Positions 1,733-34,813 of a stretch of DNA of 64,000 bases are shown here, in pieces. The stretch lies in assembly GCA_028522875.1 (NCBI GenBank), contig GCA_028522875.1_3659.1; one strand, written 5' to 3'. Source of the DNA: a phage. The translations under genes were made by a program, and so were the position numbers. The stretch's first letter is position 1, and the number at the start of each line of letters is the position of its first letter. The notes under the pieces were generated by a model. That model worked only from the letters and a program-made list of their open reading frames with translations, did not search any database and was not told where the DNA came from.

Positions 1733-2401
1733 ATGGCTGTAGCTTATCCTACAATACCAATTCCAGATCTTGAAGATGCAGAAACAGTCCTGAGTGATGA
1801 CTTCTTGGTTGTCAACCAGACTGATGGGACAAGAAAGGCTAAGATTGACGATGTTGTCAACGATCTTAGCATCACTAAGATAGTCTATTTCACAGAAGGT
1901 GGTTATCTTAAGAGTAAGAAGGACTTTGCTTATGATCCAGAAACTAAGCGCTACTACACGTGGAACGGGGATTATCCTAAAATAATCCTCCCAGACTCCA
2001 CTGTAGAGGGTGCTGGAGGTGTGTCTGCAAATGCCTGGTCTGTTTTTGGTGAGCTTGCTGCAACTTCTTCTGGCAGAATAGTTGATTACGGATCTATCGG
2101 CGGTCAGCTTGATATGGATCTTGAAGTTGCGGATACTTTTAAGGTTCGACTAACTTCAAATACCACAATCTCTTTTGAAAATCAAACAGAAGGTCTTGAA
2201 GGGGTGGCGAGAACTATAACCGTATGCATTACTCAGACCTCTGGCGGCAACAAAGTCTATTGGCCTGGTAATGTTAAATGGTCCTACGGAAGAGATCCTA
2301 TCCTAACATTTACAGCTGGTGCAACAGATATTTTCAAGTTGGAAACCTACGACAACGGGTTAACTTGGTACGGGGCACTGATTATCGCAGGAGCTATCTA
2401 A
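1733..2401 (+). CDS. tail fibre-like protein carrying a conserved N-terminal anchor domain (paralogous to N-terminus of 5036-9481)
   Basis: RBS aaggag; first ~100 aa align with N-terminus of the 1481 aa protein (DD[FY]LVV.Q.D.TR..KI.DVV ... F.EGG.L ... DFAY ... W.G.[YF]P ... AW.V). Confidence 0.5.
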   Translation: MAVAYPTIPIPDLEDAETVLSDDFLVVNQTDGTRKAKIDDVVNDLSITKIVYFTEGGYLKSKKDFAYDPETKRYYTWNGDYPKIILPDSTVEGAGGVSANAWSVFGELAATSSGRIVDYGSIGGQLDMDLEVADTFKVRLTSNTTISFENQTEGLEGVARTITVCITQTSGGNKVYWPGNVKWSYGRDPILTFTAGATDIFKLETYDNGLTWYGALIIAGAI

Positions 2402-2402
2402 G

Positions 2403-5000: not shown

Positions 5001-5003
5001 CAT

Positions 5004-5024
5004 AGGGGGCTGTTTGCCCCCTTT
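5004..5024 (+). terminator. candidate intrinsic terminator (short U tail)
   Basis: hairpin agggggc-tgttt-gccccct followed by ttc, directly after stop of 2403-5000. Confidence 0.35.
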
Positions 5025-5035
5025 CAGGAGAAAGA

Positions 5036-8000
5036 ATGGCTGATATTAAAGTTGTCAGAATTGAATCTCTTCCTGCCACTACCGCAGTGACAGAGGATGA
5101 TTACCTGGTTGTTCAACAACCAGACCTGACTCGTCGTGTAAAAATTGGCGATGTTGTCCATGTGGATGGGACTGTTTCTCATGTAATCTCCTTTAAGGAA
5201 GGTGGTAAGTTAAACGGCCCAATGGATTTTGCCTACTTCGAAGAGGAAGACCTCTACCTGCGTTGGAAAGGCGAATTTCCGCACACCGTTCCTGCACTAT
5301 CTTCACCGTACTCCGATGGTGGGATTACTGATGCTGCATGGATGGTATATACAGATCCATCATTAAGAGAGGAGCTGGAATCAACTATTGGCGCATCCAT
5401 GATTATGACAGCTGAAGGTCAGTCTGTCCAGGATGTAATGGATGTTACAGTTAAGACCGCCAACGATGCTAAAGCACTTGCACAGCGGGTAGATTTTGGT
5501 ACCGTGCACACTGTAGGCGATGTTATTCACCTTGTCAATTTTGTTGGCCCTGCAGTTATTGAAGAGGGAAGAACTACTAACTACCCTTCCGTAGCAGCTG
5601 GTGAAAAATTCCTGAACGGTGTGGTATCTCGTCGTGATACTACAACTGTTGATGGTATTTTCCGTGGCGCTACCTCCGGAGCTATGTATACCATTGCAGT
5701 AACCAACGGTGTAGCAACAACAAAAAGAATAGCACTTCGTGATGAATTTAAACGCCTAGAGGCAAACAACCCAACAAGAACCGTTATTCGTGCTGGTGAT
5801 GATGTAAACACAGCCGGGTACTTGCAGCTTGATGCAACAGGTCGTTGGGGCATGTGGAACCAACAGACATCTTCATGGCAACCTCTTGCTATAGAGCAAG
5901 GTGGTACAGGTGCCAGAGATGCCGCAGGTGCACGTATTAATTTAGGAGCTTTTTATAAACAACGTGCAGCCCTTGAGGCAAATTTCAATATTAACAATTT
6001 GACTGGCAATCAGGATGGTGTATACTACCAGCCCATGACTGCCAATGCCACCGAGGCAAATGGTTACCCAGCAGGTTCTGGTGCTGGTCACCTGATTGTT
6101 TGGCAGAACAATGCTAACGGCGGTGCAGGTTGTCGTCAGGAATACTATCCATTCTCTAACGTAGATGTTTGGTATTTGAGAACCTATCAGGCCAACACAA
6201 ATCAGTGGACTGCATGGCAGCCGATGGTCAGACCTCGTAACGATGATACCTTCAGATCTCATATCGGCCTTGGTAAAAACAACTCACCAGCCTTCGGGCA
6301 CCTTTACTTAGCTCAATACTCTGGAGATGTTAAATCTGCCTCAGGTATTCTCCATGGAGATAAATATAATACTGATGGTGTTCTTGAGCATGGTTATAGG
6401 ATCTACTCTGAGGTAAGAAACGACAATAAGGCTTGGTTGACAATCCACCTGCACAAAGGTGCAAAAGGATCTGAAACCCATAGATATTTAGGTTTCCGCG
6501 AAGACGGCGTGCTAGACTGCCCTAAATATATGCAGGTTGGGGATCTTACTGGTCAGCTGACAAACTGGGGACTCGGAGAGTGGATCCGTAGTTCAGGAGC
6601 AGAAAGAGGCTTCTGGGGATCCAAGAAAGCCGCCAAGATGGTCATCTGGGATGGTGGGATGGATGAATCCGGTAACGGCACTCTGGAATGGGGTGTTTAT
6701 AACAACCGGAAGGCCAAGTGGGAACCTTTACCGCAAGCCGCAGGTGGTACTGGAGCTACAACTTTGGCAGAGGCTCAGAATCTGTTTAGAGTTCCTATAG
6801 CTGCAGGCGTAAAAGATTTCTTAACGCTGCCAAGAACCGCAGGGATGGAAGATGGGAAATACTACCCGATTATAGTTAGAACAGATCCGTATTATGCTCC
6901 AACTACTGGCACCGATATTACCATAGTTACTAGGTCGTCATCTGGTGGTGACCCCATGAACTGTGCTACCTTACAGTGTCATTATAGAACTGGTGGGTGG
7001 ACAGATAGAGGGGACTCTTTCTACGGAGTAGTAAATTTCTACCAGAATGAAAAAGCAATTCTTGGGATGGTTGCTCCAACAAGGGGTAAACAAGAATATG
7101 TTGCTTTCTATGCAGAGGCGCGTGCTTTCCCTGTCAGCATATACGCAAGTAGAAATGTTTTAGAGGTGTTTACCAAAGAACAAGACTACCAGGTTGGTTC
7201 TGTAACAAACAATCAGGACGGTGTTAAGTTTTGTGCTCCGTTAGAGTCAGCAGACTTAAATCTTGCGATAAAGGGTGATAATGTAACTAATACCAGACCT
7301 CTTGCGGAGTTTAAAGGAACATCAGGTTTTTACACAGGCGGTGGTACTCAGTGGCACTACATCGGCACACCTGAACGCTATGCGGTGATGAGTAAAATGA
7401 CCATGCCTAAAGTTGAGCTATGGGCAGATGGTATCGACTACCTATGCCCTGGTAGTCAGACCACAAGGAAAGCACTGTTCTCTAATGCTGGATTCCAGGC
7501 AGCATCTGAAGGTACAGAGGACTTAATTAACAACACATTTACTTCCAAATGCGGCAAGGGTGCAGGTCTGAAAGGCCAGTCAGAGTTCAGGTCTACCCCA
7601 GAGGCTGGACAGGTAATTGTCAGAGATGTTGTTGGTTCCGCACATAAGTTCTTTAACTTCAACAAAGACGGCACATTCTACCCTCCTGGCGGTTATGTTT
7701 GCCAGACAGGTGCGGATTGGAACAATCAGTTTGGTAACACAAACCCGTCAAAAATAATGGCTGGTAATGTTAACGGACCTGAAGGTTCCATGGTTGTAGC
7801 AGGGTTGTCGGTTGGTTTTTCTGGAAATTATGCATTCCAGATGGCTGGTCGTCTTGATCAGTTATACACCAGGTCTATTGAGGGTGGTAATCATAGAGCG
7901 TGGAACAAGGTAATCCAACACCGTGGTCAAGGCTTGGGTAATAGCAATCTTAATGATTACAAAGCTGATCGTGAAGGTATTTATCATCAAGAGGCAAACT

Positions 8001-9481
8001 CTAACGCCACAGCCGAAAGAAATTACCCGCCTGGGCAGCAGATGGCTGGTACATTGATTGTACTCAGAAACTCTGCTAACGAGGGCACGGGCTGTATTCA
8101 GATCTACAAGATGTACCTTGGTGGAACATGGGAAAGGTATTATAATAACACTGGTAGTGGAATGGCTTGGAGTCCTTGGAAGAGAACAAGCTTCCCGGAA
8201 AGCACAACCGCCCCAGTTATGCCTGATCTTTGGTTACCTTTGACCTCCAACTTAAAACCTGCACTTGGCGAGGGTGAGATGGTATTCTCCAGACCATCTA
8301 CAGCAACATACTTTTCTAAACGTGGTGTGATGGTTACTGCCCAGAACGATCAGCCTAGGTTTGAAAGAGATGGTCTGCTTATCGAAGGGCAAAGGACAAA
8401 CCTGATGCTTAACAGTGAAGACCCGAGTAAATGGGGAGCCAGTCAACAGATTACTGTTGGTGGTACTGTAACAAACACTAACGGCACAAAAGGTGCAAGA
8501 TTTACAGTAAACACTGCATCCGGTGTGGAAACAACAGCGTTAAACCTTGCTACAGTTCCAGCCACCAGAGGTGCCGATGTAACAGGTGCTGAGAAATTCT
8601 GTACTGGGTCTATTATTGCAAGGGGAGGTAAAGCGAACCAGAGATTACGTGTAAGATTCGACATGTATGACGGATCCACCACAGTATTCCAAGGTGACGC
8701 TTATGTTAACCTGTCAACACTTGAAGTTAAAACAACAGGTGGTGCAGCTGGGGGAATTAAAGTAAAAGCTGAGAGATGGCAAACAGCTGGACCTGCTTGG
8801 GTAAGGATTGCCGCTACGTTTGAGGCAGTGGCCTCTGACAAGAATATCGGGTGCCAGTTCCAGATTTCTCCACCTGAAGGTGCTCAGCATGTTGTAGGAG
8901 ATTGGGTTGATGTTGCAATACCTCAATTTGAGCTAGGTTCTTGCGAGTCCTCGTTTATTCCCACAGGGTCTTCACCTGTAACTAGAGCGGCAGATCTTTG
9001 CAAATTTCCGATGACTGATAACTTAGCACCTAGACCGTTCACTATTGCCGCTACTGTGGATGCTAACTGGAGAGGTTGGGGAAAAGCTCCTAACGCAGCC
9101 CCTAGGGTTATAGACACAGAAGGACACCAGTCGGGCGCACCTTTTATCCTCGGGTTTGGTTCTGCAACAAATATTGCAGAGGATGGGTATCCATATTGTG
9201 ATATAGGAGGATCTAACCGTAGGGTGTATGAGATGTGTAAGGTACGTAAGTTAAGAATGGGGTTCAGAATAAAAGATGATGGTAAAACATGTTCTTTTGC
9301 TAATGGATTGATTAGCTCTGAAACGCAATCTTCTTGGGAGTTTCTTGCAGGAGGGGCTTTTATCAGGATAGGTGGTCAAACAGCATCTGGTGAAAGACAC
9401 CTGTTCGGGCACATTAAGGATATCAAGCTTTGGAACTCGTCTTTGACCGATACGCAACTTATGATGGAGAATATTGAATAA
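5036..9481 (+). CDS. large tail fibre / tailspike protein with conserved N-terminal anchor domain and C-terminal ConA/LamG-like lectin motif
   Basis: 1481 aa; RBS caggag; N-terminus paralogous to 1733-2401; C-terminus ...HLFGHIKDIKLWNSSLTDTQLMMENIE resembles LamG/ConA-like jelly-roll end motif. Confidence 0.55.
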   Translation: MADIKVVRIESLPATTAVTEDDYLVVQQPDLTRRVKIGDVVHVDGTVSHVISFKEGGKLNGPMDFAYFEEEDLYLRWKGEFPHTVPALSSPYSDGGITDAAWMVYTDPSLREELESTIGASMIMTAEGQSVQDVMDVTVKTANDAKALAQRVDFGTVHTVGDVIHLVNFVGPAVIEEGRTTNYPSVAAGEKFLNGVVSRRDTTTVDGIFRGATSGAMYTIAVTNGVATTKRIALRDEFKRLEANNPTRTVIRAGDDVNTAGYLQLDATGRWGMWNQQTSSWQPLAIEQGGTGARDAAGARINLGAFYKQRAALEANFNINNLTGNQDGVYYQPMTANATEANGYPAGSGAGHLIVWQNNANGGAGCRQEYYPFSNVDVWYLRTYQANTNQWTAWQPMVRPRNDDTFRSHIGLGKNNSPAFGHLYLAQYSGDVKSASGILHGDKYNTDGVLEHGYRIYSEVRNDNKAWLTIHLHKGAKGSETHRYLGFREDGVLDCPKYMQVGDLTGQLTNWGLGEWIRSSGAERGFWGSKKAAKMVIWDGGMDESGNGTLEWGVYNNRKAKWEPLPQAAGGTGATTLAEAQNLFRVPIAAGVKDFLTLPRTAGMEDGKYYPIIVRTDPYYAPTTGTDITIVTRSSSGGDPMNCATLQCHYRTGGWTDRGDSFYGVVNFYQNEKAILGMVAPTRGKQEYVAFYAEARAFPVSIYASRNVLEVFTKEQDYQVGSVTNNQDGVKFCAPLESADLNLAIKGDNVTNTRPLAEFKGTSGFYTGGGTQWHYIGTPERYAVMSKMTMPKVELWADGIDYLCPGSQTTRKALFSNAGFQAASEGTEDLINNTFTSKCGKGAGLKGQSEFRSTPEAGQVIVRDVVGSAHKFFNFNKDGTFYPPGGYVCQTGADWNNQFGNTNPSKIMAGNVNGPEGSMVVAGLSVGFSGNYAFQMAGRLDQLYTRSIEGGNHRAWNKVIQHRGQGLGNSNLNDYKADREGIYHQEANSNATAERNYPPGQQMAGTLIVLRNSANEGTGCIQIYKMYLGGTWERYYNNTGSGMAWSPWKRTSFPESTTAPVMPDLWLPLTSNLKPALGEGEMVFSRPSTATYFSKRGVMVTAQNDQPRFERDGLLIEGQRTNLMLNSEDPSKWGASQQITVGGTVTNTNGTKGARFTVNTASGVETTALNLATVPATRGADVTGAEKFCTGSIIARGGKANQRLRVRFDMYDGSTTVFQGDAYVNLSTLEVKTTGGAAGGIKVKAERWQTAGPAWVRIAATFEAVASDKNIGCQFQISPPEGAQHVVGDWVDVAIPQFELGSCESSFIPTGSSPVTRAADLCKFPMTDNLAPRPFTIAATVDANWRGWGKAPNAAPRVIDTEGHQSGAPFILGFGSATNIAEDGYPYCDIGGSNRRVYEMCKVRKLRMGFRIKDDGKTCSFANGLISSETQSSWEFLAGGAFIRIGGQTASGERHLFGHIKDIKLWNSSLTDTQLMMENIE

Positions 9482-16694: not shown

Positions 16695-17381
16695 ATGGCA
16701 GAGATTAAGTCGGATGTTAACCACATCCACACTCTGCCAGATTTTGTTCAGGGAGGTCTTGACTACCTGCCTGGAGATTTTCTGGCTGAGAAGGTTAATT
16801 TAGTCACATTCTTAACCGTGTACCTTAAAAGGTTGGAGGATGTTGATAAGATGCTGGTAGGTTTGGCTGAAGGAAGATTGCTTAATAATGCCAGCGGAAG
16901 ATACCTTGACGAAGTTGGTAATCAACTCGGTATTCTTAGGAATGGACTTTCAGATGCTGATTTTCGTGCCACACTAATTATTCAGCAGGCCGCAGCATCA
17001 AGGGGCGGGACTCGCGAAGATGTCATCTCCACCTTGCGACAATTGTTCGGAAGAAACAATTTCGATACGTGGAAAGGAGACAACTTCAGGTTTGACATAA
17101 ATATTAGAAAAACTTGCTTTGACATATTGCAGTCTATTGATCAGATCTTAGACATGCTACCACTGCCTTGTCATTTGCGTCTTACAGAATCGCAAGGGCA
17201 AGCTTTTGGTTTTGAAGGTGACTCTACAGCTCTTGGCTTCGGATCAGTGTGGGAAGAAAACCAATCCGGAGTTGGTGGGCTGGCTACTTTGCTGTATGTT
17301 CCTGACGTAAGACCTGATTGGGACACCACAACCATTTATTGTGAAAGTATTACAGTAAACGCAACTAGACAGGAGGGTTAA
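16695..17381 (+). CDS. baseplate/tail protein I-like (P2 gpI / XkdU DUF2313-like)
   Basis: 228 aa; segment LGILRNGLSDADFRATLIIQQAAASRGGTREDVISTLRQLFG resembles the kR.li..a....kGT...v...l family signature; directly downstream of J. Confidence 0.45.
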   Translation: MAEIKSDVNHIHTLPDFVQGGLDYLPGDFLAEKVNLVTFLTVYLKRLEDVDKMLVGLAEGRLLNNASGRYLDEVGNQLGILRNGLSDADFRATLIIQQAAASRGGTREDVISTLRQLFGRNNFDTWKGDNFRFDINIRKTCFDILQSIDQILDMLPLPCHLRLTESQGQAFGFEGDSTALGFGSVWEENQSGVGGLATLLYVPDVRPDWDTTTIYCESITVNATRQEG

Positions 17382-19453
17382 TGGCAACAGCTGTTTTTAA
17401 ACCTTACCGTGATTACTCTACAATGGCTGCACGGTTTCATTACCGCACAGTTCAGGATACTGCCGTTCCTGGTAGGGATTATGATCATGTTGAGGGCGAT
17501 ATAACTATCCCAGTTGGGGCAACCAGTATTGAAATCCCAGTGGAAATTGTTGACAAATTACCCAACAGGTTACCAAGAAGCTTCTTTATGGAGTTTTCAT
17601 CAAAATCTCAAGGGGTGATGATTGGGACACAAAGGGCGAAATGTACAATAGTTTCAGATGAGAATCTTGACAGAATATCTTGGGATACTGTCGAGGAGAG
17701 AATGTTTCACCCAAGATATTGGGTTACAACCACTCAGCAGACTGAAAGTACCTGTATTGTTGCAGATGACAACTGTTGTATTAACCGTTTAGTGTCAAGA
17801 ACATATGGAGGTATGGCTGGGTGCATTTGGGAAACAGTTGACAAGTATGACCATTTCGGTATTGGGTTTGATGATCACTATGAGATGAGAAACACCAAGC
17901 TTTGGTTCAGAATGTCAATAACCAATGCCAGCAACTTCTCCACTCCTGAAAAGATGATTATGACTGTAGACCTTGTTGATGGTACAATCATCTATGTTCC
18001 TTTAGCTCAATATGCTGTCAGCATCTCAGAGGATAAGAATGTTGCAGAGATTCATATTGATTTCGAGGACTGCGTCGGGATGGATCAGAACAACAACATG
18101 ATGGGTGTTGATCCTCGACAGGTGAGAAGAATTTTAATACCGCTCATGCCTAAAGACTGGGTAAGTAATAGCACAGACCCGAGAACGGAAAATGTAGAGT
18201 GTGAGTTGCGCCTAGATCTGCTTCAGCCAGACACGGGCTGGAAAATGATGCAACTTAACAATATTCAGGTTAAAGAGCACGACGTTGGGATCTGCACCGC
18301 ATATGACGATATGTGGAACGTATCTCCTTTAAGGGTGTTGAACAATATCAAGCGTCTGGGCTATACCGGAACCATAAACCATTATGTTGGTATGAGTCAT
18401 TATTATGACTACACATGGTCAGGAACCCAATGGTCTATAAACAGAACAGGGGCGCTAAACGCTGCAGCTTATAAATGGCATGATGATTTTATGTACAATG
18501 CCAAACGACATAACTTCGACGTTATGCAGTCTGTAAGTTTTGAGCTTTACAGCGATGCCTGCCCGTTGGAATGGACCCAAAGAGACTGGAATGATAACTA
18601 CGCTAAAACAGGATATACACCTTGTAGCTACCTCCTGTCTCCAACCATTGAAGAGGGTATGAATTTCCTTACTGCAGTATTTAAGAATTTTGCATCAGCC
18701 GCTATGAGAAACAACCTGCCAGTGATTATGCAGGTTGGTGAACCGTGGTGGTGGTTCAATACCGATACTCGTAGACCTTGTATTTATGATTACCCTACAA
18801 AACAGGCGTTTTATGATGAGACAGGCGAGTATGCCTTAGATATTGGGACTATTGACGATCCTAAAACTGGCGGTGTTTACGACAAGTATGTAGCATTTTG
18901 TCGTGGTAAGCTTGGCGCTCGTATTGCGGCTATTTCAAAGGCAATAAAGGCACACGCTGCATCAGCTCAGATGACAGCTCTGCTGTTTTTCCCAACCATT
19001 ATGGAAACCGAGCTTACGCAAAAGCTGAACCTTGCTGACCAATATAAAAAAGAAGCAGGTGCTCTTGATTTCTTCTGCACTGAGTGTTACGATTGGGTGA
19101 TGCAGGGAGGTATTGAAAAGGCAAAAGAGTCTGTAAACATACCTATCGTTAAGTTAGGTTGGCAACCGTCTGAAATACAATACCTTGCAGGGTTCGTTCC
19201 TAGTAAAGAGCTTGCTCCGGTATATGGATACGACCCAACCAGGAATTACCAAGAATTTTTATGGAGATGTATTTGCGGAAACATGGCAACTATAGAGTAT
19301 AGATACCCTGAGGTAAAACAGTATGTGTGGGCATACCCGCAAGTAATGTCTGACAGCATCACTGTTACCGCTAGAGATTCTACCGTGCTTCATATGGGGC
19401 AGGTTGCTCTGAAAGGGTATGTAGAGGATGTTGTCCCGCCAGACTTCTCATAA
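17381..19453 (+). CDS. tail-associated protein with N-terminal Calx-beta-like domain (function unknown)
   Basis: 690 aa; ATGA overlap with upstream gene; N-terminal FHYRTVQDTAVPGRDYDHVEGDITIPVGATSIEIPVEIVDKLPNRLPRSFFMEF resembles Calx-beta. Confidence 0.4.
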   Translation: MATAVFKPYRDYSTMAARFHYRTVQDTAVPGRDYDHVEGDITIPVGATSIEIPVEIVDKLPNRLPRSFFMEFSSKSQGVMIGTQRAKCTIVSDENLDRISWDTVEERMFHPRYWVTTTQQTESTCIVADDNCCINRLVSRTYGGMAGCIWETVDKYDHFGIGFDDHYEMRNTKLWFRMSITNASNFSTPEKMIMTVDLVDGTIIYVPLAQYAVSISEDKNVAEIHIDFEDCVGMDQNNNMMGVDPRQVRRILIPLMPKDWVSNSTDPRTENVECELRLDLLQPDTGWKMMQLNNIQVKEHDVGICTAYDDMWNVSPLRVLNNIKRLGYTGTINHYVGMSHYYDYTWSGTQWSINRTGALNAAAYKWHDDFMYNAKRHNFDVMQSVSFELYSDACPLEWTQRDWNDNYAKTGYTPCSYLLSPTIEEGMNFLTAVFKNFASAAMRNNLPVIMQVGEPWWWFNTDTRRPCIYDYPTKQAFYDETGEYALDIGTIDDPKTGGVYDKYVAFCRGKLGARIAAISKAIKAHAASAQMTALLFFPTIMETELTQKLNLADQYKKEAGALDFFCTECYDWVMQGGIEKAKESVNIPIVKLGWQPSEIQYLAGFVPSKELAPVYGYDPTRNYQEFLWRCICGNMATIEYRYPEVKQYVWAYPQVMSDSITVTARDSTVLHMGQVALKGYVEDVVPPDFS

Positions 19454-22851: not shown

Positions 22852-24597
22852 ATGGCGCAAGACATGACAAGCTTTGAGCAGGCGGTAGATCAAGTAATTG
22901 TTGATTCTGAACGTTTGCACCTGATTGTCAACGGTAACGCTGTGGATGAAGTTGTCGTAGAGGATGGGACCACCATCCCTACGGTACGAAAAGCCATGCT
23001 TGACACCCTTTATTTTAAAACGCCGCCGATCCCTTGGGCGTATGGTGCATCCACAACAGTTTTTAACCAGCTATATGAGTTTAAAGGGGACACAGGCCCT
23101 CAGTGGTGGTACGCTCCCGCAGCATCAAAATCTAACCCGGTTAGAATGCCAGCAGATCCTTCACAATCTCCAAACTGGAGATTATATACCGACTCTGCAG
23201 TAATGGCAAAATACTACGCAAAACTTAACAGCCCAAGGTTCGAAGGTGACCCGCGAGTACCTACGCCTCCAATGGACGATAAGTCTGAGTCTATAGCAAA
23301 CACAGAGTTTGTTGTTGACTATGTAGATAGCATATTTGAAGCTATGGAGGGGATGAAGGTTACTGTAGGGTCTTTGGTGGTAAAAGGTCTTACAGAACTT
23401 GCTAACACCATAGTTGGTGGCACCCTTACCTTACATGGACCTGTTAATGGGGCAGATTCTACTGCACGCTTTAGGAATCTAATCCTCACGGCAAATACTT
23501 CTACACTTACTTTTGCGTGGAGCGATCCTAAGCATGCAGACTGGAGAAGTACAGAGCTGCAACCTCATGAAGTGTCCACCCACAGGGTTATAGCTGACAC
23601 TATAACTTCTGGGAAACCAGTGGCTAATAATAACGATGTGCATTTTGATGGTCTGGGTAATAACTTTTTTGACTACGTGTACATTCGTGGTAATGCCATG
23701 AAGGCAGCAACCGAACCGACATTGCAGGTCGATGGGACCACCAGGGTTAAGAACCTTGAGGTGACAGGTACCGTTACAGGGATAACATACTCTGTCGATG
23801 GCACCATGATCTACCCTAGCTATATTGAAAGCACGGGTGATGCACTGATAAATGGCGATTTGGAGGTTGGCGGGTCTGTAGTTATTCGAGGTACAGCCTC
23901 TATCCAAAATATATCTCTGAATACTCTAAGAGTCAATGAGCGTGCAACTTTTGAAGGAGAAGGGCTTACAGCCAATAAAGGTACAATTACCGAGCTGACC
24001 GCCACCACTTTAACTGCAACAACTGCAAACTCTGAAAACTGCAACATTACCAGAAACTTGCAGGTAAATGGAGATGTCAGTTTAAACGCCTCAGGGACTG
24101 GCACCACCTACCTTCACAATCTTGAAATATCCGGCACAGTGACCGGGTGGCTGCCAGACTTCTCTAATGTCAACTTTGTCTGTAATGGCATTAACTCCAG
24201 TGGTAAGATAACCACCTCTCAAGAAATTGAGGCTGGTAAAACCATCACTGCCCCTACTTTCCACGCAGGGAAGGTAGATTTCGATTTAGAGGAGGTTGAC
24301 GCGTCCAGTGGGACATGGACACCTAACGGGCAGGCCAGTATGTATGTTGTCCACGCTAAAGGGGATTTTACAATAGGGCAGTGGCCTGGAACATCAGCGG
24401 AAGATAAACCTTATCCATTCACTGCAGTTATCTATGTAATTCAGGATGCTGTAGGTCACAACGTGACTCTGCACGATAAGTATGCTATCCTGTCGGCAAC
24501 ACCTGTTATTAACAACAAGGCTAACAGTGTTACCTTGCTGCAATTGACGTATTGTGGTGTTGGTGATATCGTAGACGTAGTAATTGCACAACGTTAA
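22852..24597 (+). CDS. tail fibre protein (P2 gpH / lambda Stf-like N-terminal collar motif)
   Basis: 581 aa; RBS aaggag; contains LNSPRFEGDPRVPTPPMDDKSESIANTEFV, matching the conserved tail-fibre motif SP.ftG.PtaPT....nstqIAtTaFV. Confidence 0.6.
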   Translation: MAQDMTSFEQAVDQVIVDSERLHLIVNGNAVDEVVVEDGTTIPTVRKAMLDTLYFKTPPIPWAYGASTTVFNQLYEFKGDTGPQWWYAPAASKSNPVRMPADPSQSPNWRLYTDSAVMAKYYAKLNSPRFEGDPRVPTPPMDDKSESIANTEFVVDYVDSIFEAMEGMKVTVGSLVVKGLTELANTIVGGTLTLHGPVNGADSTARFRNLILTANTSTLTFAWSDPKHADWRSTELQPHEVSTHRVIADTITSGKPVANNNDVHFDGLGNNFFDYVYIRGNAMKAATEPTLQVDGTTRVKNLEVTGTVTGITYSVDGTMIYPSYIESTGDALINGDLEVGGSVVIRGTASIQNISLNTLRVNERATFEGEGLTANKGTITELTATTLTATTANSENCNITRNLQVNGDVSLNASGTGTTYLHNLEISGTVTGWLPDFSNVNFVCNGINSSGKITTSQEIEAGKTITAPTFHAGKVDFDLEEVDASSGTWTPNGQASMYVVHAKGDFTIGQWPGTSAEDKPYPFTAVIYVIQDAVGHNVTLHDKYAILSATPVINNKANSVTLLQLTYCGVGDIVDVVIAQR

Positions 24598-24606
24598 TAT
24601 ATCTAA

Positions 24607-24630
24607 CCGCTCCTGACGGGGCGGTTTTCT
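24607..24630 (+). terminator. candidate rho-independent terminator
   Basis: ccgctcc-tgac-ggggcgg hairpin (one G-U pair) followed by ttttctt. Confidence 0.45.
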
Positions 24631-24645
24631 TATCTGGAGAACACA

Positions 24646-27600
24646 ATGCTTCCAATCCCTTTGCTAAAACTTGGTCGTCATTTCCTCGATAAGAGGGGTG
24701 GAATTAAGGAACTTGCTGTTCTGTCATACCCAATAGACAACAGTGACGGTACAAGCACTGCAGTATCCTATGTAAACAGCTTAGCTATACTTTTTGACGA
24801 TGGTCAACTTAATATTACGGGCTATAACAAGTTCGGGGAGTGTCGCACTGGGGATCGTAACCCTATAAACTACCCGAGCGAAACAGCATGGAATGTTGAT
24901 CATGTGTGGAGAGCAGACCGTGCGTTTGTGATCCGGACTTTTGATAATCAGTTTTTCTACATCGGCTGCACTGCAGGTCTTATCGGATCCACTGCGGCGG
25001 GTGGTAATGATGTTTGTGTCAGAGAGTGGACACCTTTGCCGGAACAGATCGTAACAGGGTTGCATTTGGACACCCATCCTGAGAGACTTGTTGAAGTAAT
25101 GGGTGGCATAAACAATACAGTGTGGGTAATTGCTGCACCAGAGGCTGATGGTATGCTTCACCTGTACGGCTCTGGCAATAATACTTACGGCTCTCTTCAT
25201 GTTGACAAAAATCAACACGCTACTCCAGTTAAGATTGGTGAATCATCTGAAAGTCCAGAGACAGGTCCTTGGAAAAATCCAAGAATTAATTGTGAAGTTC
25301 ATGACAACTCGGTTATTTTTGGTGGTCCTAACGGATTCTGGATTGCAGGTTACGATTTCTTAAGAAATAACAGCAAAAACACACCAGTTTATCCAGCCGA
25401 GCATGTGACTCTTGACCAGTTTAAAGGCATCCCAGTGGGCGAGACATGGAAAGGGTTCATGTGTGGACCTAATGGTGCAATTATAGCCACAGAAAGGATG
25501 CACAAACCTGATGACCAACAACTTGTTAATGTGTTTTATGGTCAGGATGTTTGGGGTGACGACACGTGGAGAAGCCTTAACATCACCTATACCCATGAAG
25601 TAATTATGGCTCGCGGGTACGGGACTAGTGGAATTTTCTTCAATAATGGTACAAAACAGTACCGTGGTTTCTCCAGAAACCTGTGTAACGATATTGGTGC
25701 TCAATCTGCTAATAATAATCCTAGGGCCAATTTTATTCATTACAGAGCGCTGGCAACAGCTAAGTTTGTTGAACAGACAGAGCCAGTAAGCTGGACAGAA
25801 AGCGTTTATTTTCAAGGGATCCACAGGGAAGGTTTCTTAGGCACATTCTGTGTGGTAAATGGAAAGCTTTGGTGGTCAGGTATCCCAAGGGGCAGTTTTT
25901 CAGGCTCTAATAACCTGTTCGGCGGCAGACTTAACAGCCAAGGGTTCACAGAGATTCCTGAGAATTGGTATAAAAATGTTCCGGTAGATAGCTGGAGTAT
26001 CGAAGACATCTTTGATGTCAATGGTGTAAGCAGTGTTAGCAATATATACATTGGCGACACTGTCAAAATGAAGTTGAAACCTCAACCGGAGGGTGCTACG
26101 TTCATTATTGACAAGATTGAGCTCGTGAACGCTGCAGGTACTGTTGTTACAGATGCAAACTATCAGTTCTCTACTAACTGGAACCATGGCGGTGCTAACG
26201 AGATTGTGGTTACCCAGCATAACCGTAACATCAACAGACGCGGTCTGTATTCTGTCAAGATCACCTATCATGATAAACATGGCGCTGGAAGAACCCACAC
26301 CACACGAAACTTAAACTGGAACATTATAGTTCCTGCATATCCGTCAGACGGCAAATGGCACACTGTTGGCAGGAAGAAACAGTTCCATGTAAACGATACT
26401 GTATACTTTGGGCTTAACGGCTCTCAGCCTGCTCCAGAAAGCGATACAGCATATATGGTTAGGCTTCACAGGCAAGATGCCGGATCTACCACGTATGATG
26501 TGACCCAGGAGATCTACGACCAGAGACGCAGTATCTATGACAATCTTGTGAAAACACAAGCCTTGTGGGAGTTCAACCCTAACGGCAAAGGCGGGAAGAT
26601 GCTGCAGGTTAACGAGCAGAACGGAACATCGTTAACAGTGCACGAGCATGCTGATCCATGGCCTGATCCTGGTAAGCCTCACCCAGGTGCTCGCACACTG
26701 AAAGTTGTTAGCCACAACGCAGGGTATTTCGGGATACGTTGGGAAGCTACAGTAAAATATGTTGATGGAACAACAAACAATATAGGTATTACTCTGGGTG
26801 GTACCAGTGAAGATAGTTCTCTGAAAATTGCCTACACCCCTAGAGGCATCTCTATTGACAATATGGATATAGTTCGTAACGGTTACGGTGATGTAAACAT
26901 CAAAGTTACCCTCGGTGAACATCTTGGTGGAGAAAGGATCATCATGTATGCCTTTGACCATGATCCTCGCACCAATGGAACCTATGCAAATCAGGCGTGG
27001 AGTTACCTGATAAATGCACCTGAGCCAAATACTAAAGAGTTTTATTATGGTATGAAGCGCGATGTGTGCAAGAAAACAGGAACACATGACTGGATCGCTA
27101 TCTGCGTTAAAGATGAGCGGACAGCTTGGGACGAGCCTGTTAACAGATGGTTCATAGGAATCCCAACCAGAAGTGATAAATATGTCACAGAATATATTGT
27201 GTGCATGGGCGGCACCAACCTGAACCTGTGTTGGAACGAAGATGCAAACAAATATTCCGATTATGACTATATGAGAGATATCTCTTGTAATCAGTGGTTT
27301 AACCAGACTACAGGTTACCCTCCGCGTCAGGCGAGAGTAAACCCTGCAATCTTCACAGATACGCAGGTTTTCTTGACAAAACAGGCCAACGAGGTTCAGA
27401 CCTTCAAGAACAAATACGACCCTAACAAGTGGTTTTATAACTGTTATGGCGCATTTTTCTGGGGTCCGGGGGAACTACCTAACGGGGGATCTTGCTTCGA
27501 GGCTGCAACCTATGGCAGCGACTATATTATGGGGCAAGTCAAGAAATACAAAATGATCCCTGGTCCTGAAACCCTGGGTAATGCTGTTGACCCGTATATA

Positions 27601-30282
27601 GTCTTCTCGTCTGTCCATGCAAATATGAACGGAGAGAAGTATCCGTTCGACGTTCCGGTAGCCAATAGATACAGACGTGTCGTGATGATCATTAAGTGCG
27701 ACCTGATAGGTAAGCAAGTTCCTGCTGAAAACGGAACATCAACACACCCGTTTGAAATTGCTCTGCACTACCAATTTGCAGATTCGCCTTTTGCAGGGGA
27801 TAAGAGAATATCTGATACAGATGCACAGCGTTGTAAGAAGGTATTGTTAGGTGCTGGATGGTGGTGGTATGAGTTTGACTTGACAGACAAACTCACAGAC
27901 AACACAAAAACTCTTACAGGTATTCGTCTGGACCTTGGTGAAAACATGCACAAAAGTGTCTGCGATGGCACCTATGGTGATCCTACAGTACACTTGAAAT
28001 ATGTTTCTCTTGAGCATCCGGAGGAAACTGTTATTGGCCCCAAACTGAGACTGTTTGGCAGCTGGATTGCTAAAGACAGAGTAGGAATGGGTAAAAAGGT
28101 AAGAGGATTCCTGATGGATGCGGGGACAGAAGACATGCTGGTTAATGCAGTGTGGCCTACTCTAGAGGGAACCGACTACAACAATGCTGCAAGATCTGTC
28201 AACTGGTTTAACATCCACAGAGCCATGTGGACTACCAACTGCTATTTGTGGAGAGAGCTTAACGATAATGCCTTCGGCTTCAGCAATGGCAGAAGGATGG
28301 CTATCATTTGCTGGACAACACTGCAACGTTGCTATGACCACAACTATGAAATAGGTGGTAGAGCGTGGAAAGACACCAGGGATAGAATTGTGTACAACTT
28401 TGCAGACGACAACGGTGGTGGAGCGTATAACTTCGGCACAAGCAGACTTATCCACTTAAACGGATCCTCGGCCTACAAGAAAGAAGGTTACTCTGGATCC
28501 ATGATTGAGTGGGGTCTGGTAAAAGATGCTCGCGTATTGATGGGCCAACAACTTGCTGCTGCAATAGGTCCTAACGCAGTGCAATCTGTTAAACCAGCGT
28601 GGTTCGATATTCCATTGTGGTCATCCGGCACACCAGGGACTGCTGCAATCAATCCTACCACGGGAGATCTGGAAATCTCTTGGGAAGACTTGAAGCAGGT
28701 TGGGGGCTGGGATAAGACAGGGTATCAGGTGCAGTGGTGGAAATCTGACGGATCGTTAGCAGCTGATGAGTTTGTTAAGGACAATTTCTACACCATGTCT
28801 TCTGCAAAAGCACAGCAATTGTTTGGTCAGGCCACTCCGTCAACGATCACCATGTCTATGTGTTGTAAAGACAACAGGACTGGAGCTCTGGGACCAAGGG
28901 TTGCTAAAGTTTTCTCAGGTATCAAATGGAATCTACCTGTTCAAAGTGTTTCATGGAAGCAAATAGGTGATAACAGGCTGCTGGTTACTCCTGCTTGCCA
29001 GTTCAACGCAACTCTTAACGTTGTTCCGGTTGTTGCAGCAAACTCAGCCAAAGCTTCTGACTTCTCTGTGTCTAACACTGCCATGGCAGATGTGAGAAAG
29101 ATTGACACACTGAATGCAAGAATCACCTGTAAAAACACTTATGGCACCTTCCAGGTTATCAACAACTTCACAGATGCCGATTCTAAGGTGGTGAGAACCG
29201 CAAGCCAGACCTTGCGTTTAGGGACTTTGGCTTATGCAGCATTGATCACTGAGCAGTCATCTACCCTTCAGGGTGGTGGCGTAGGCAAGTCTATTACAAC
29301 ACCTGTTTGGAAGCCTAACGAGTGGGTTGTGTTTGATTTGACTGTTGACTTCTCCAGTGATAATAACTGGACGTGGGTAAGGGATTGCTTGTCTCAGTTA
29401 ATGGGTGGTCCAAGCTCTATCAGGGATAGCCACGACTCTACCGATCCTGGCGTGTTCCAAGTGGGTAAAACTCACCCAGAGACCGGGGCTACATTGCCTG
29501 ACAGGAAGTATGCTTTGGTTTGCATCTCCCACGGCAAGGCCGATGTCACATTCTCAGGGACACATACTTATAACGGAACCTACAACTTCTCAAGAAAATA
29601 CAGCCTCAAGGCTGGGAATATTGTAGATGAGGTTGGGGTGTTGTATAACCCTGGCAATGGCATAGGTATTGTTGGCGGTAAACTGCAGATGCAGGAACCC
29701 TCTATCACCCCTTCCAACGTAACAGGGATCAGAAAGACTTGGGAAAGTAGTAATACTGGCATAGCAACCGTTGATGCTAACACAGGACTGGTAACATTTA
29801 AAGCGCCCGGTAATGTCAACATAACGTTTGTAGTTACGGATGATGCAGGCCGCAAGACGTCTTCAACATCTTTCACTGTCAAACAGATGACACCACAGTG
29901 GAGAATGTGGATAGGCAGAGCAACAAACGGGGCATACCCAAATCCGGCAGGGACTTCAGGAATGAAGACTTTCTCTGCAAGCAGACCGATGGAGTATGGC
30001 AGCGGTCCTAAAGTAGGGCAAATGGTGTACTTCGGCGCATATATTCCTGAAATTATAGGGCTTCCGAGAAATCAGATCCAGTTGCTGTTCGGATCTGGAG
30101 TTGACGAGCTTGCTACTTTCGGGTATAGCGATAACATCGAGGCTGCAAGAAGTTCCGGATGGGTAGGGTTCAGACTGCAGTTGGCAGTAGAAGGCAGGGT
30201 CATGGGGTTTGGCTCCATAGGTGCCATGCTTCCTGGTGATCAGCAGTATGATCTTGAAGCTTATGCAACTTTCTCTCGTTAA
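24646..30282 (+). CDS. giant tail-associated protein (1878 aa) with RCC1-like repeats and a Big_2 Ig-like domain
   Basis: Single uninterrupted ORF; N-terminal repeats (ITGYNKFGECRTGD, LYGSGNNTYGSLHVD) resemble RCC1 blades; C-terminal region PSNVTGIRKTWESSNTGIATVDANTGLVTFKAPGNVNITFVVTDDAGRKTSSTSFTVK is Big_2-like. Confidence 0.5.
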   Translation: MLPIPLLKLGRHFLDKRGGIKELAVLSYPIDNSDGTSTAVSYVNSLAILFDDGQLNITGYNKFGECRTGDRNPINYPSETAWNVDHVWRADRAFVIRTFDNQFFYIGCTAGLIGSTAAGGNDVCVREWTPLPEQIVTGLHLDTHPERLVEVMGGINNTVWVIAAPEADGMLHLYGSGNNTYGSLHVDKNQHATPVKIGESSESPETGPWKNPRINCEVHDNSVIFGGPNGFWIAGYDFLRNNSKNTPVYPAEHVTLDQFKGIPVGETWKGFMCGPNGAIIATERMHKPDDQQLVNVFYGQDVWGDDTWRSLNITYTHEVIMARGYGTSGIFFNNGTKQYRGFSRNLCNDIGAQSANNNPRANFIHYRALATAKFVEQTEPVSWTESVYFQGIHREGFLGTFCVVNGKLWWSGIPRGSFSGSNNLFGGRLNSQGFTEIPENWYKNVPVDSWSIEDIFDVNGVSSVSNIYIGDTVKMKLKPQPEGATFIIDKIELVNAAGTVVTDANYQFSTNWNHGGANEIVVTQHNRNINRRGLYSVKITYHDKHGAGRTHTTRNLNWNIIVPAYPSDGKWHTVGRKKQFHVNDTVYFGLNGSQPAPESDTAYMVRLHRQDAGSTTYDVTQEIYDQRRSIYDNLVKTQALWEFNPNGKGGKMLQVNEQNGTSLTVHEHADPWPDPGKPHPGARTLKVVSHNAGYFGIRWEATVKYVDGTTNNIGITLGGTSEDSSLKIAYTPRGISIDNMDIVRNGYGDVNIKVTLGEHLGGERIIMYAFDHDPRTNGTYANQAWSYLINAPEPNTKEFYYGMKRDVCKKTGTHDWIAICVKDERTAWDEPVNRWFIGIPTRSDKYVTEYIVCMGGTNLNLCWNEDANKYSDYDYMRDISCNQWFNQTTGYPPRQARVNPAIFTDTQVFLTKQANEVQTFKNKYDPNKWFYNCYGAFFWGPGELPNGGSCFEAATYGSDYIMGQVKKYKMIPGPETLGNAVDPYIVFSSVHANMNGEKYPFDVPVANRYRRVVMIIKCDLIGKQVPAENGTSTHPFEIALHYQFADSPFAGDKRISDTDAQRCKKVLLGAGWWWYEFDLTDKLTDNTKTLTGIRLDLGENMHKSVCDGTYGDPTVHLKYVSLEHPEETVIGPKLRLFGSWIAKDRVGMGKKVRGFLMDAGTEDMLVNAVWPTLEGTDYNNAARSVNWFNIHRAMWTTNCYLWRELNDNAFGFSNGRRMAIICWTTLQRCYDHNYEIGGRAWKDTRDRIVYNFADDNGGGAYNFGTSRLIHLNGSSAYKKEGYSGSMIEWGLVKDARVLMGQQLAAAIGPNAVQSVKPAWFDIPLWSSGTPGTAAINPTTGDLEISWEDLKQVGGWDKTGYQVQWWKSDGSLAADEFVKDNFYTMSSAKAQQLFGQATPSTITMSMCCKDNRTGALGPRVAKVFSGIKWNLPVQSVSWKQIGDNRLLVTPACQFNATLNVVPVVAANSAKASDFSVSNTAMADVRKIDTLNARITCKNTYGTFQVINNFTDADSKVVRTASQTLRLGTLAYAALITEQSSTLQGGGVGKSITTPVWKPNEWVVFDLTVDFSSDNNWTWVRDCLSQLMGGPSSIRDSHDSTDPGVFQVGKTHPETGATLPDRKYALVCISHGKADVTFSGTHTYNGTYNFSRKYSLKAGNIVDEVGVLYNPGNGIGIVGGKLQMQEPSITPSNVTGIRKTWESSNTGIATVDANTGLVTFKAPGNVNITFVVTDDAGRKTSSTSFTVKQMTPQWRMWIGRATNGAYPNPAGTSGMKTFSASRPMEYGSGPKVGQMVYFGAYIPEIIGLPRNQIQLLFGSGVDELATFGYSDNIEAARSSGWVGFRLQLAVEGRVMGFGSIGAMLPGDQQYDLEAYATFSR

Positions 30283-30294: not shown

Positions 30295-30324
30295 AAAAAG
30301 GGGCCAAACGGCCCCTTTCTTTTT
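30295..30324. terminator. bidirectional rho-independent terminator at convergent gene junction
   Basis: aaaaa-ggggcc-aaac-ggcccc-tttcttttt: GC stem flanked by A-run and T-run, between + gene ending 30282 and - gene ending 30329. Confidence 0.7.
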
Positions 30325-34023: not shown

Positions 34024-34287
34024 TCAGAAACCCTCTAAAAAGCTCTTGTAGAAAACAATCTCAGTATCCACACCAGTCACAATCTTGTCGTTCCTGATTT
34101 CATCGGTAAGATAGGTGTCAAAACGCAGAACCTGTGTGGTGTTGTCACACATCCACTCAGCTGTGACCATTGCGAAAATCTTAGCATCTTCATTATCTGG
34201 TGTGAATGTTACCACCTCACCGCACTTAAACTTTTCGATAGGCTGAGTGTTAGCTTTCGGTTCTGCGATAGTGATTTTTGTGGTCAT
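34024..34287 (-). CDS. small protein, member 3 of a tandem 87-aa paralog triplet
   Basis: 87 aa; RBS aggaggag; shares M(A/T)T...F.s..K.kK......G(T/E)VV ... lp ... vtE.D..I.ilGE pattern with the two upstream genes. Confidence 0.5.
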   Translation of the reverse strand: MTTKITIAEPKANTQPIEKFKCGEVVTFTPDNEDAKIFAMVTAEWMCDNTTQVLRFDTYLTDEIRNDKIVTGVDTEIVFYKSFLEGF

Positions 34288-34550
34288 TATTCTCCTCCTT
34301 CTTTTGAATAGCTTGTCTCTCCAAGGATGGTAATTTTGGTGTCAAGCTCTGTAACTTTCATGTTTGGCGGCAGATCGTACAACTCATTATTTTCTAAATC
34401 GAACCCCCACACACAATGTTCTCCTGTTTTGACAATCATAACTATGTTTTGAATACCGTCTCCGTCGCAACTTACCACGGTCCCACACGGAAAACTGTCT
34501 GCACGCTTTTTGTTCTTCACTTTAGAATTGAATACAATGCTAGTAGCCAT
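34287..34550 (-). CDS. small protein, member 2 of a tandem 87-aa paralog triplet
   Basis: 87 aa; ATGA overlap with neighbours; paralogous to 34024-34287 and 34550-34813. Confidence 0.5.
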   Translation of the reverse strand: MATSIVFNSKVKNKKRADSFPCGTVVSCDGDGIQNIVMIVKTGEHCVWGFDLENNELYDLPPNMKVTELDTKITILGETSYSKEGGE

Positions 34551-34813
34551 TATTGTTCCTCCACCATAACTTCGCCAAGAATTTCTATGCAGGCATCCAT
34601 TTCTGTAACAACCAAACTGTGAGGTAGTTCTACAAACACCTTTCTGAACAGGTCAAATACCCCAACATATATGTTTGCAGGATGTGATTTTACAACAAGT
34701 GCTGTATTCACATCCCCAAGTTCATCAACAAACATCACCACAGTGCCTGGAGCTACTGAGGACAGATACTTCTTAGTTTTACGGTTTGATGCAAATTTTA
34801 ACTCTGTTGCCAT
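34550..34813 (-). CDS. small protein, member 1 of a tandem 87-aa paralog triplet
   Basis: 87 aa; RBS gaggagg; paralogous to the two downstream genes. Confidence 0.5.
   Translation of the reverse strand: MATELKFASNRKTKKYLSSVAPGTVVMFVDELGDVNTALVVKSHPANIYVGVFDLFRKVFVELPHSLVVTEMDACIEILGEVMVEEQ

Follow-up and report, generated by a model that had tools for sequence, protein, structure and literature searches.

The largest ORF in the analyzed window, a 64-kb stretch of DNA from a Vequintavirus (rV5-like myophage), was identified by full-length profile match and gene order as the orthologue of rV5 gp27. We gave an even chance to the interpretation that the gp27-type protein serves the tail module as an accessory adhesin for glycans, non-essential and present in few copies, which would be carried on the virion, most likely at the tail or baseplate periphery. 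The reading that we favored is that it is neither a classical trimeric fiber nor a depolymerase. The gene itself is already catalogued as rV5 gp27 and occurs in more than 100 sequenced phages, an identity that the earlier note on this DNA had not recognized. The features of the gene and its flanks are listed in Table 1.

Table 1. Features of the gp27-type gene and its flanking signals in the window (aa, residues of the 1878-aa product)
Feature	Position	Strand	Remarks
Terminator-like hairpin (9-bp stem, 4-nt loop) and T-rich run	24605-24636	+	Terminator scan; immediately 5' of the RBS
RBS GGAG	24636-24639	+	6 nt 5' of the ATG; read from the sequence
ORF, 1878 aa	24646-30282	+	ATG start, uninterrupted; orthologue of rV5 gp27, Bas58_0041, and Bas54_0041 (phrog_15684)
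N-terminal peptide M-L-P-I-P	24646-24660	+	M-x-P-I-P invariant among genus-level homologues
RCC1-like beta-propeller, aa 1-445 (propeller proper from aa ~20)	24646-25980	+	Most conserved section of the protein
Canonical RCC1 blade, aa ~141-197, '...LYGSGNNTYGSLHV...'	25066-25236	+	Aligns to each UVR8 blade
Family-specific region, aa 446-845	25981-27180	+	Beta-sandwiches at ~446-570 and 735-845
Orphan central region, aa 846-1335, Trp/Cys-rich	27181-28650	+	Helical parts (846-945 and 1125-1331) around a beta-sandwich
CBM-like beta-jelly-roll sandwich, aa ~966-1125	27541-28020	+	Within the central region; predicted
FN3-like domain, aa ~1331-1425	28636-28920	+	AF2 strand pattern, pLDDT 55-79; weak Pfam fn3 match (E 0.09)
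Variable region with Ig-like beta-sandwiches, aa ~1436-1670	28951-29655	+	AF2, Foldseek
Big_2 bacterial Ig-like domain (PF02368), aa 1682-1733	29689-29844	+	E 6e-9
Variable C-terminal domain, aa ~1757-1878, beta-rich	29914-30279	+	phrog_215 alignment runs through it
Hairpin terminator	30297-30318	.	Terminator scan; closes the rightward tail operon at converging transcription

Gene identity and genomic context

The ORF was open throughout and was the largest in the window (the runners-up were 1481, 1204, and 1132 aa), which agrees with its earlier description as one of the largest, uninterrupted ORFs; the predicted mass of its product was 208 kDa. The phrog_15684 profile covered residues 1–1878 of 1878 (E = 0, 4338 bits), the nucleotide identity over the full length to more than 100 Vequintavirus genomes was 86–88%, and the amino-acid identity to Bas54_0041 was 90%. 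The upstream neighbor, a 581-aa ORF (22852–24597), was the orthologue of rV5 gp28, annotated as 'tail fiber protein'. In the window, rV5, Bas58, and Bas54, the gene occupied the same place after the gp28 orthologue, being the last rightward tail/fiber gene before a strand switch. rV5 gp27 (YP_002003529), Bas54_0041, Bas58_0041, and LL12 gp27 were alike in length (1875–1878 aa), position, and orientation, with 88–90% identity, and their domain order, upstream hairpin, and downstream terminator were as in the window copy, which differed from this group in being a new mosaic allele.

The sequence of the hairpin preceding the RBS was identical in rV5, Bas58, and Bas54, and the record of phage Alma labels its counterpart as a terminator. 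In phAPEC8 and GAP31, this position was taken by a hairpin and T-run that differed in sequence; over three genera, the structure of this element was kept and its sequence was not. The hairpin is probably an attenuator that holds the expression of the ORF low, and low expression is suggested by the conservation of the element together with the tiny mass-spectrometry signal of gp27 in rV5 (see below). At the downstream end, rho-independent terminators on both strands are annotated in rV5 at the counterpart of the terminator in Table 1, and the sign of the GC skew flipped past ~30 kb in the window.

Allelic variation

Compared with rV5, the window allele showed 99–100% identity over part of the propeller and 78–81% over the central region. 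Its final 540 nt were 100% identical to those of MiataMamis and 66–89% identical to those of rV5, Bas58, and Bas54, and tblastn with aa 1594–1878, which include the C-terminal domain, retrieved allelic classes of ~99%, 89%, and 78% identity. As judged from these identity patterns, recombination has made the gene a mosaic, and its C termini are allelic. Among 16 family members, conservation dropped from ~76% at the N terminus to ~20–40% at the C terminus, which is the pattern that modular adhesins of phages would be expected to show if anchored through the N terminus.

An intact ORF was kept in most of the more than 100 genomes. In the annotations of phages Alma and ime, two CDSs take the place of the gene, and a 557-aa form that stops where the window protein has Trp558 represents 77 clustered sequences. 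Sequencing errors may account for frameshifted alleles in database entries.

Domain architecture

The RCC1-like repeats that had been proposed for the N terminus were supported by profile–PDB matches, homologues, and self-comparison, with the window sequence itself remaining below the curated thresholds. The Pfam search of the window protein reported no match to PF00415, and the scores for PF25390 (E 3.8e-5, 23.6 bits) and RCC1_2 (PF13540; E 0.05, 13.9 bits) were below the respective cut-offs of 150 and 22 bits. The family profile of aa 1–445 matched UVR8 (9e-16), HERC1 (4e-11), and HERC2, RCC2, and RPGR (of the order of 1e-8 to 1e-6, up to 5e-6) in the PDB, and its best 22 PDB matches were all RCC1-like-repeat proteins (22/22). 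The positional homologues in phAPEC8, GAP31, and a PVP-SE1-like phage exceeded the PF00415 cut-off (24–36 vs. 21.7 bits), matched PF25390 over ~290 residues, and matched phrog_4219 'regulator of chromosome condensation' (E 7e-44). Self-comparison of the window protein pointed weakly to internal repeats (E 0.009), and the blade-HMM scan detected only one strong blade (the canonical blade in Table 1), the other six being marginal. At the profile level and through its homologues, the N-terminal region is homologous to bona fide RCC1-fold proteins, and we infer that it forms a complete seven-bladed propeller; the AF2 model was unreliable for aa 146–400 (pLDDT ~25). The window protein differs from the seven-bladed propellers of UVR8, RCC1, and HERC (PF00415, PF25390) in missing these thresholds and in the degeneracy of its other blades, and roles in Ran-GEF activity, UV-B sensing, and ubiquitin ligation are not expected for it.

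In the peptide preceding the propeller, M1, P3, I4, and P5 were invariant in the window protein, rV5, phAPEC8, GAP31, and SEW_6S, and phi92 gp152 begins with MYPIPL despite the absence of a propeller. A docking role for this peptide may be proposed as a speculation. The propeller may be a binding module rather than an anchor, since the phi92 homologue keeps the peptide and Big_2 without it.

Members of phrog_11922 'tail protein' (PVP-SE1 gp40, GAP31_232, and phAPEC8 gp086, from Seunavirus and Phapecoctavirus) are likewise encoded by the gene that ends the tail module, behind a hairpin. They share with the window protein the M-x-P-I-P start, a homologous propeller (25–35% identity over 445 aa), and one or more downstream Big_2 domains; however, they are only 560–890 aa long and have Big_2 right after the propeller, whereas ~1200 residues lie in between in the window protein. 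phi92 gp152 represents the opposite extreme, with an M-x-P-I-P-type peptide and Big_2 and no propeller. A reading of gp152 as the first 200 aa of the propeller was rejected, as the protein consists of the propeller-less peptide and two Big_2 domains. A published resemblance between gp27 and the N terminus of phi92 gp150 was not reproduced by BLASTP (E>1).

The ~1200 aa between the propeller and Big_2 are, by profile searches, confined to the rV5-like genus. A profile of the central region retrieved two family members and nothing else from 1.84 billion representative proteins, and no match beyond the family was found in Pfam, PDB, or PHROGs. The region was well conserved, and dozens of its Trp, Cys, and acidic residues were invariant; its many invariant charged and aromatic residues included E1162-D1163, N1186-W-F-N-x-H-R-A-M-W, E1235, E1280, and E1288. 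No fold was assignable to its helical parts because their AF2 pLDDT was 25–35.

AF2 was run in two segments with a 16-sequence family alignment, and both models were poor overall (mean pLDDT of 49 and 54), so the limits of the domains are uncertain, as are the folds beyond the confident sandwiches. The confidently modeled domains fit fold classes typical of Ig/FN3/CBM-like beta-sandwich strings, and the full-length family profile retrieved only Ig-domain noise from PDB sequences. The variable Ig-like region, the least conserved stretch of the family, was modeled with pLDDT 62–89 for aa 1525–1660 and poorly for aa 1436–1515. Foldseek matches of the C-terminal half in the PDB (cadherin, NUP210, and Sap S-layer tandem-Ig) had a TM of ~0.1 and were uninformative.

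The Big_2 domain that had been placed near the C terminus was confirmed, ~145 aa before the end, scoring above the gathering threshold (36–39 vs. 22.8 bits) with an AF2 pLDDT of 77–92. The 138 C-terminal residues retrieved a single fragment and no further relatives in a word-index search. T4 Hoc, the C-terminal Big_2 of lambda gpV, and T5 pb6 offer comparisons for the Ig-like part; the window protein is far larger, comprises a propeller and an orphan region as well, and has a gene of its own at the end of a fiber cluster instead of being fused to a capsid or tube protein.

Virion association and dispensability

The description of the protein as tail-associated derives from gene position and inherited annotation; the only virion mass-spectrometry evidence, from rV5, is marginal. 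gp27 accounted for 9 spectra compared with 2030 for the capsid protein. Its three peptides were non- or semi-tryptic, two of them with poor preliminary-score ranks, and the list placed it on a level with the non-structural rIIA protein. After inspecting these peptides, we no longer took the rV5 table as proof of virion association.

In the cryo-EM study of Bas49 and Bas54, three of the nine annotated fiber proteins were placed near the baseplate (PMC12143355), and the published maps of Bas49, Bas54, and phi92 assign no density to a gp27-type protein. The gene is reported to be dispensable on E. coli K-12, where bas54_0041 tolerates disruptive transposon insertions (HIDEN-SEQ preprint, 10.1101/2025.11.20.689424). 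The two-CDS alleles, the 557-aa form, and the propeller-less phi92 version also argue for dispensability.

Interpretation and alternative explanations

The earlier proposal of a multi-domain adhesin or enzymatic fiber stood in part: the protein is multi-domain and an adhesin is favored, whereas neither a catalytic domain nor a trimerization signal was detected. The alternative of a true trimeric lateral tail fiber or receptor-binding protein, possibly an alternative fiber setting the host range on particular strains, was considered unlikely. It draws on the position of the gene at the end of the fiber cluster, the variable and mosaic C terminus, and the annotation 'lateral tail fiber protein with intimin domain' in BASEL genomes. 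Some Bas54 lateral fiber genes, which are not named in the text of the HIDEN-SEQ preprint (10.1101/2025.11.20.689424), are moreover conditionally essential on clinical isolates. However, the 'intimin domain' corresponds to the Big_2 domain only. Identity with intimin was rejected, as the NCBIfam intimin scores were 18.8–20.1 bits against cut-offs of 1400–2050 and the match comprised 39 residues of the Ig domain. What the window protein has in common with intimin is the Big_2-type Ig fold (PDB 1e5u and 1f00; E 0.008–0.016), and it is without the beta-barrel, LysM, and C-type lectin domain. The longest helix in the AF2 models was 21 residues, no trimerization or shaft module (coiled coil, beta-helix, including triple-beta-helix, or S74 chaperone) was found among Pfam and PHROG domains, and no assembly chaperone is annotated adjacent to the gene. 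Beta-propellers and Ig/FN3 strings are usually monomeric, and the Bas49 and Bas54 reconstructions resolved only three fibers near the baseplate. An enzyme-bearing appendage, in which aa 846–1335 would act as a novel catalytic domain that degrades or modifies polysaccharides and contains an inserted CBM, with the propeller and Ig domains as scaffold, was judged quite improbable. The many invariant charged and aromatic residues of the central region and its arrangement around a CBM-like jelly roll would fit such a role, as would the several glycan-active fiber proteins of related phages (PMC8594841) and the PF23845 match in the ORF adjoining the gene. However, conserved residues alone do not prove catalysis and the helical parts were modeled with low confidence. 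Moreover, no similarity to any catalytic family, and no recognizable depolymerase, esterase, or lyase domain, was found in Pfam, NCBIfam, PHROGs, PDB sequence and profile searches, or the profile search of 1.84 billion proteins.

Two readings would take the protein away from the tail. A Hoc-like Ig-domain decoration of the head or neck, serving adherence to mucus or surfaces, is very improbable: in four related genera the tail/baseplate operon ends with this gene, the head of rV5 is already decorated by an abundant protein (gp61), and Big_2 is just as common on tail tube and tail fiber proteins (phrog_341 and lambda gpV). Of all the readings weighed, we rated lowest that of a non-virion late protein, such as one that assists assembly or acts on the envelope of the infected cell. 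The marginal mass-spectrometry support, the formation of infective virions on K-12 without the gene, and the absence of assigned density in published reconstructions would all be compatible with it. Nevertheless, a 208-kDa product composed of extracellular-type modules (Big_2, FN3, CBM-like, and propeller) and encoded in the tail operon fits an intracellular role badly, and the intactness of the ORF in most of the genomes and its diversifying, mosaic C terminus also speak against this reading.

For the accessory adhesin that we prefer, a location on the virion, anchoring by the N-terminal end, binding of glycans, and a low copy number are inferred. The conserved N-terminal end would dock the protein onto a conserved virion partner, and the long Ig/FN3/CBM-like string would reach outward from the virion. 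Its modules may touch surface polysaccharides (O-antigen, capsule, ECA, and mucus glycans) weakly and reversibly, and such contacts would increase the encounter and adsorption rates on particular hosts. Primary recognition would be left to the fibers thought to use ECA, and irreversible binding and triggering to the short fibers thought to use the LPS core. The upstream hairpin would keep expression low. It is also conceivable, albeit rather unlikely, that the central region is a glycan-active, enzymatic fold not seen before, or that the M-x-P-I-P peptide and the propeller constitute a new virion-docking module.

Implications

The practical value of the finding is moderate. rV5-like phages, which have been isolated widely, are therapy and biocontrol candidates, and a multi-fiber apparatus is credited with their broad host range. 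The largest 'fiber' gene is probably not a canonical fiber gene, and one of the nine annotated fiber proteins would accordingly be relabeled. The relabeled protein appears to be a propeller and Ig-string that the phage can do without on K-12 and that undergoes free recombination, so engineering and knockout efforts may be better aimed at conditional, host-specific phenotypes. The orphan central region provides a defined target for structure determination. If the docking-module reading were true, the gp27-type protein would represent a class of monomeric 'giant whisker' adhesins, apart from trimeric fibers and spikes.

Locus and orthology of gp27

The focal ORF (gp27) was the largest in the 64-kb window according to an ORF scan. 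The earlier note, which had listed it among the largest, uninterrupted ORFs, gave its coordinates and size exactly. By sequence reading, GGAG is located 6 nt 5' of the ATG, and a 581-aa ORF, the counterpart of rV5 gp28 ('tail fiber protein'), precedes the gene. Megablast retrieved 121 matching phage records, 108 of which matched over at least 80% of the ORF length, and the best full-length matches showed 86–88% nucleotide identity. Most of these records belong to Escherichia phages in Vequintavirus, the genus of rV5-like myophages; rV5 itself and the BASEL isolates are among them. The gene order was identical in the window, rV5, Bas58 (HeinrichReichert), and Bas54 (MaxBurger): baseplate and fibre genes come first, then a pair of short-fibre paralogues accompanied by a chaperone, followed by gp28, the focal gene, a terminator, and opposite-strand genes. 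As the match was full and the gene order the same, the ORF was assigned as the orthologue of rV5 gp27 (YP_002003529, 'Ig-like domain-containing protein'). Membership in this family was found both by full-length profile and by synteny, and phrog_15684, a dedicated PHROGs family of unknown function, covered the protein end to end. About 15 GenBank records titled 'Campylobacter phage' (host C. jejuni; MG065635, MG065654, MG065666, and others) were full Vequintavirus genomes, 88% identical to the focal gene, and their host label looks doubtful.

The hairpin directly upstream of the gene was identical in rV5, Bas58, and Bas54. A hairpin of different sequence with a T-run occupies the same position in phAPEC8 (locus L004, ~8964-9000) and GAP31 (locus L007, ~3960-3995), and the hairpin at this position is annotated as a terminator in Alma and phAPEC8. 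Because the structure and not the sequence is conserved across three genera, it suggests a partial terminator that may lower expression of the last tail-module gene; lowered expression would fit a low gp27 copy number. The downstream hairpin coincides with a sign change in GC skew, and terminators are annotated on both strands at the matching point of rV5. Beyond it, three minus-strand ORFs, each exactly 87 aa long, are arranged head to tail (34024-34287, 34287-34550, and 34550-34813); they are equivalent to rV5 gp13-15 and look like a local triplication.

Coordinates of gp27, its domains, and associated features (nt, window positions unless stated; aa, window protein)
Feature	Position	Strand	Details
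Candidate N4-like deacetylase fibre ORF	17381-19453	+	690 aa; PF23845 TIM-barrel, E 1e-79; PF23844, E 7e-13
Hairpin and T-rich run	24605-24636		9-bp stem; directly 5' of the gp27 RBS
gp27	24646-30282	+	ATG start, uninterrupted, 1878 aa
Beta-sandwiches	aa ~446-570 and ~735-845		Confident in AF2 segment model
160-residue sandwich	aa ~966-1125		AF2
FN3-like domain	aa ~1331-1425		AF2
Ig-like domains including Big_2	aa ~1525 to ~1756		AF2
Big_2 (PF02368)	aa 1682-1733		Above Pfam cut-off
Hairpin flanked by A-runs and T-runs	30297-30318		Between converging rightward tail operon and leftward early genes
phi92 genes 152 and 153	7321-7929 and 8096-8983 (phi92 locus, L009)		

Domain architecture

The RCC1-like repeats proposed in the earlier note held at the level of profiles and homologues and failed the Pfam cut-off on the sequence itself, for which PF25390 ('RCC1-like domain'; E 3.8e-5, 23.6 bits vs a cut-off of 150) and RCC1_2 (E 0.05) were sub-threshold. 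A profile of aa 1-445, built from five sequences and searched against all PDB sequences, matched UVR8, HERC1, HERC2, RCC2, RPGR, Kti13, and WBSCR16 (E from 9e-16, for UVR8, to 0.08). All 22 of the 22 top matches were RCC1-like-repeat proteins, with alignments passing through the blade at aa ~141-197. Self-comparison by hhalign gave off-diagonal matches at offsets of ~112-124 and ~305 residues (E 0.009-0.2). The N terminus was found by tblastn to be common to the last tail-module gene of Phapecoctavirus, Seunavirus, and PVP-SE1-like phages. These positional homologues (phAPEC8 gp086, 891 aa; GAP31_232, 567 aa; PVP-SE1-like, 604 aa) exceeded the PF00415 RCC1 cut-off, aligned with PF25390 across ~290 residues, matched phrog_4219 'regulator of chromosome condensation' (E 7e-44, residues 26-415), and carried Big_2 domains directly after the RCC1-like part. 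As a blade-HMM scan found only one canonical blade in the N-terminal domain and the AF2 model of aa 146-400 was unusable (pLDDT ~25), we infer a closed seven-blade propeller from size and homology only.

The Big_2 domain near the C-terminus was confirmed. Its sequence is similar to the Big_2-CBM56 module of a glucanase and, to a lesser degree, to intimin. The orthologous gene is labelled 'lateral tail fiber protein with intimin domain' in BASEL; intimin identity was rejected, as NCBIfam intimin models scored 19–20 bits vs cut-offs of 1400–2050, and the label reflects nothing beyond the Ig domain. AF2, run on two segments, modelled further sandwich, FN3-like, and Ig-like domains. Outside its sandwich, the central region (aa 846-1335) was partly helical and poorly modelled, and invariant Trp, Cys, and acidic residues are abundant in it. 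Pfam, PHROGs, and PDB searches gave no matches to this region, and its profile retrieved two matches, both family members, from 1.84 billion representative proteins.

Conservation, mosaicism, and length classes

Conservation was computed over 16 family members that were 41–89% identical. Identity to the window protein was ~75% in the propeller, 35–70% in the middle, and 20–45% over the final 440 residues, where indels occur as well. Compared with individual genomes, the gene is a sharp recombination mosaic: nt 601-1200, in the propeller part, were 99–100% identical to rV5, Bas58, and Bas54 and 74–80% to MiataMamis, nt 2701-3900 were ~78–81% and 83–86% identical, and the last 540 nt were 66–89% and 100% identical, respectively. 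The last 285 aa (1594-1878), used as a tblastn query, fell into identity classes of ~99%, ~89%, and ~78%, in agreement with the 'moderate allelic variation' of gp27 reported in the BASEL paper (PMC8594841).

The short forms of the family consist of the propeller and Big_2, to which rV5-like phages add ~1200 residues. phi92 gp152 lacks the propeller and comprises only a MYPIPL N-terminal peptide and two Big_2 domains; it shares 57% identity with residues 395-566 of GAP31_232. The M-x-P-I-P N-terminal peptide was invariant in all homologues. The following ORF, phi92 gp153, has no annotated RBS and weakly matches SASA, a sialate O-acetylesterase family (E 0.008). A published likeness between gp27 and phi92 gp150 was not reproduced by BLASTP.

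Possible virion association and reported dispensability

In the rV5 virion proteome, locus 27 (1878 aa, 208,334 Da) was represented by 3 peptides and 9 spectra at 3.1% coverage (PMC3606486 Table S5). The peptides were non- or semi-tryptic, two had poor preliminary-score ranks (9 and 14), the entry stood at the table bottom beside the non-structural protein rIIA, and gp27 was absent among the detected proteins named in the main text (PMC3606486). Virion association of gp27 is therefore plausible but weakly supported, and the entry should not be cited as firm proof that the protein is structural. In cryo-EM of Bas49 and Bas54, only three of the nine proteins annotated as fibres were placed close to the baseplate (PMC12143355), and the 2026 phi92 structure makes no mention of the homologues gp152 and gp153.

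HIDEN-SEQ transposon mapping of Bas54 placed bas54_0041, checked as the true orthologue of the focal ORF by gene order and 90% aa identity to the window protein, among fibre genes tolerating disruptive insertions; its authors considered such genes dispensable for E. coli K-12 infection and infective virion formation (10.1101/2025.11.20.689424). In phages Alma (locus 301-5936) and ime (301-5935), the annotation splits the orthologue into two overlapping CDSs, with different break sites, and a 557-aa form (P0026), representing a cluster of 77 sequences, stops exactly where the window protein has Trp558. These interrupted or shortened alleles could be tolerated loss-of-function alleles or sequencing errors.

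On K-12, ECA was proposed as the primary receptor of these phages, thought to be recognised by an N4-like deacetylase fibre, and LPS core glucose as the terminal receptor, probably recognised by short fibres (PMC8594841). The ORF at 17381-19453, which has an N4 non-contractile tail sheath N-terminal domain match (PF23844) and a weak Calx-beta match, fits the proposed ECA-targeting fibre. With the ECA fibre and short fibres as receptor binders, no required role would be left for gp27 on K-12.

Proposed role of gp27

We consider the chances about even that gp27 is a modular, probably low-copy accessory adhesin, docked by its N-terminal end and dispensable on K-12. Docking to a conserved partner on the virion would fall to the conserved N-terminal peptide and propeller. 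The extended series of Ig, FN3, and CBM-like domains, whose distal end is variable and recombines, would touch surface glycans weakly and aid adsorption to certain hosts or in certain settings. Because the phi92 version lacks a propeller, this domain may serve in binding instead of as the anchor.

The strongest rival to the accessory adhesin, that gp27 is a genuine lateral fibre of trimeric build or an RBP, we consider unlikely. The fibre-defining features looked for in the window protein were not found. Less probable still is that the orphan region of gp27 contains a new enzyme; every test along the whole window protein failed to detect a recognisable catalytic domain, and the 'enzymatic' part of the earlier note was not borne out. 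We give little credence to head or neck decoration, and marginally less to a non-virion protein.

The family is already on record in more than 100 genomes and is functionally uncharacterised; the accessory-adhesin candidate in the window is a new mosaic allele within it. Full-text searches found no published description of the propeller joined to Ig domains, of three length classes in the family, or of the orphan region in its centre, which constitute incremental observations on the gp27 family.
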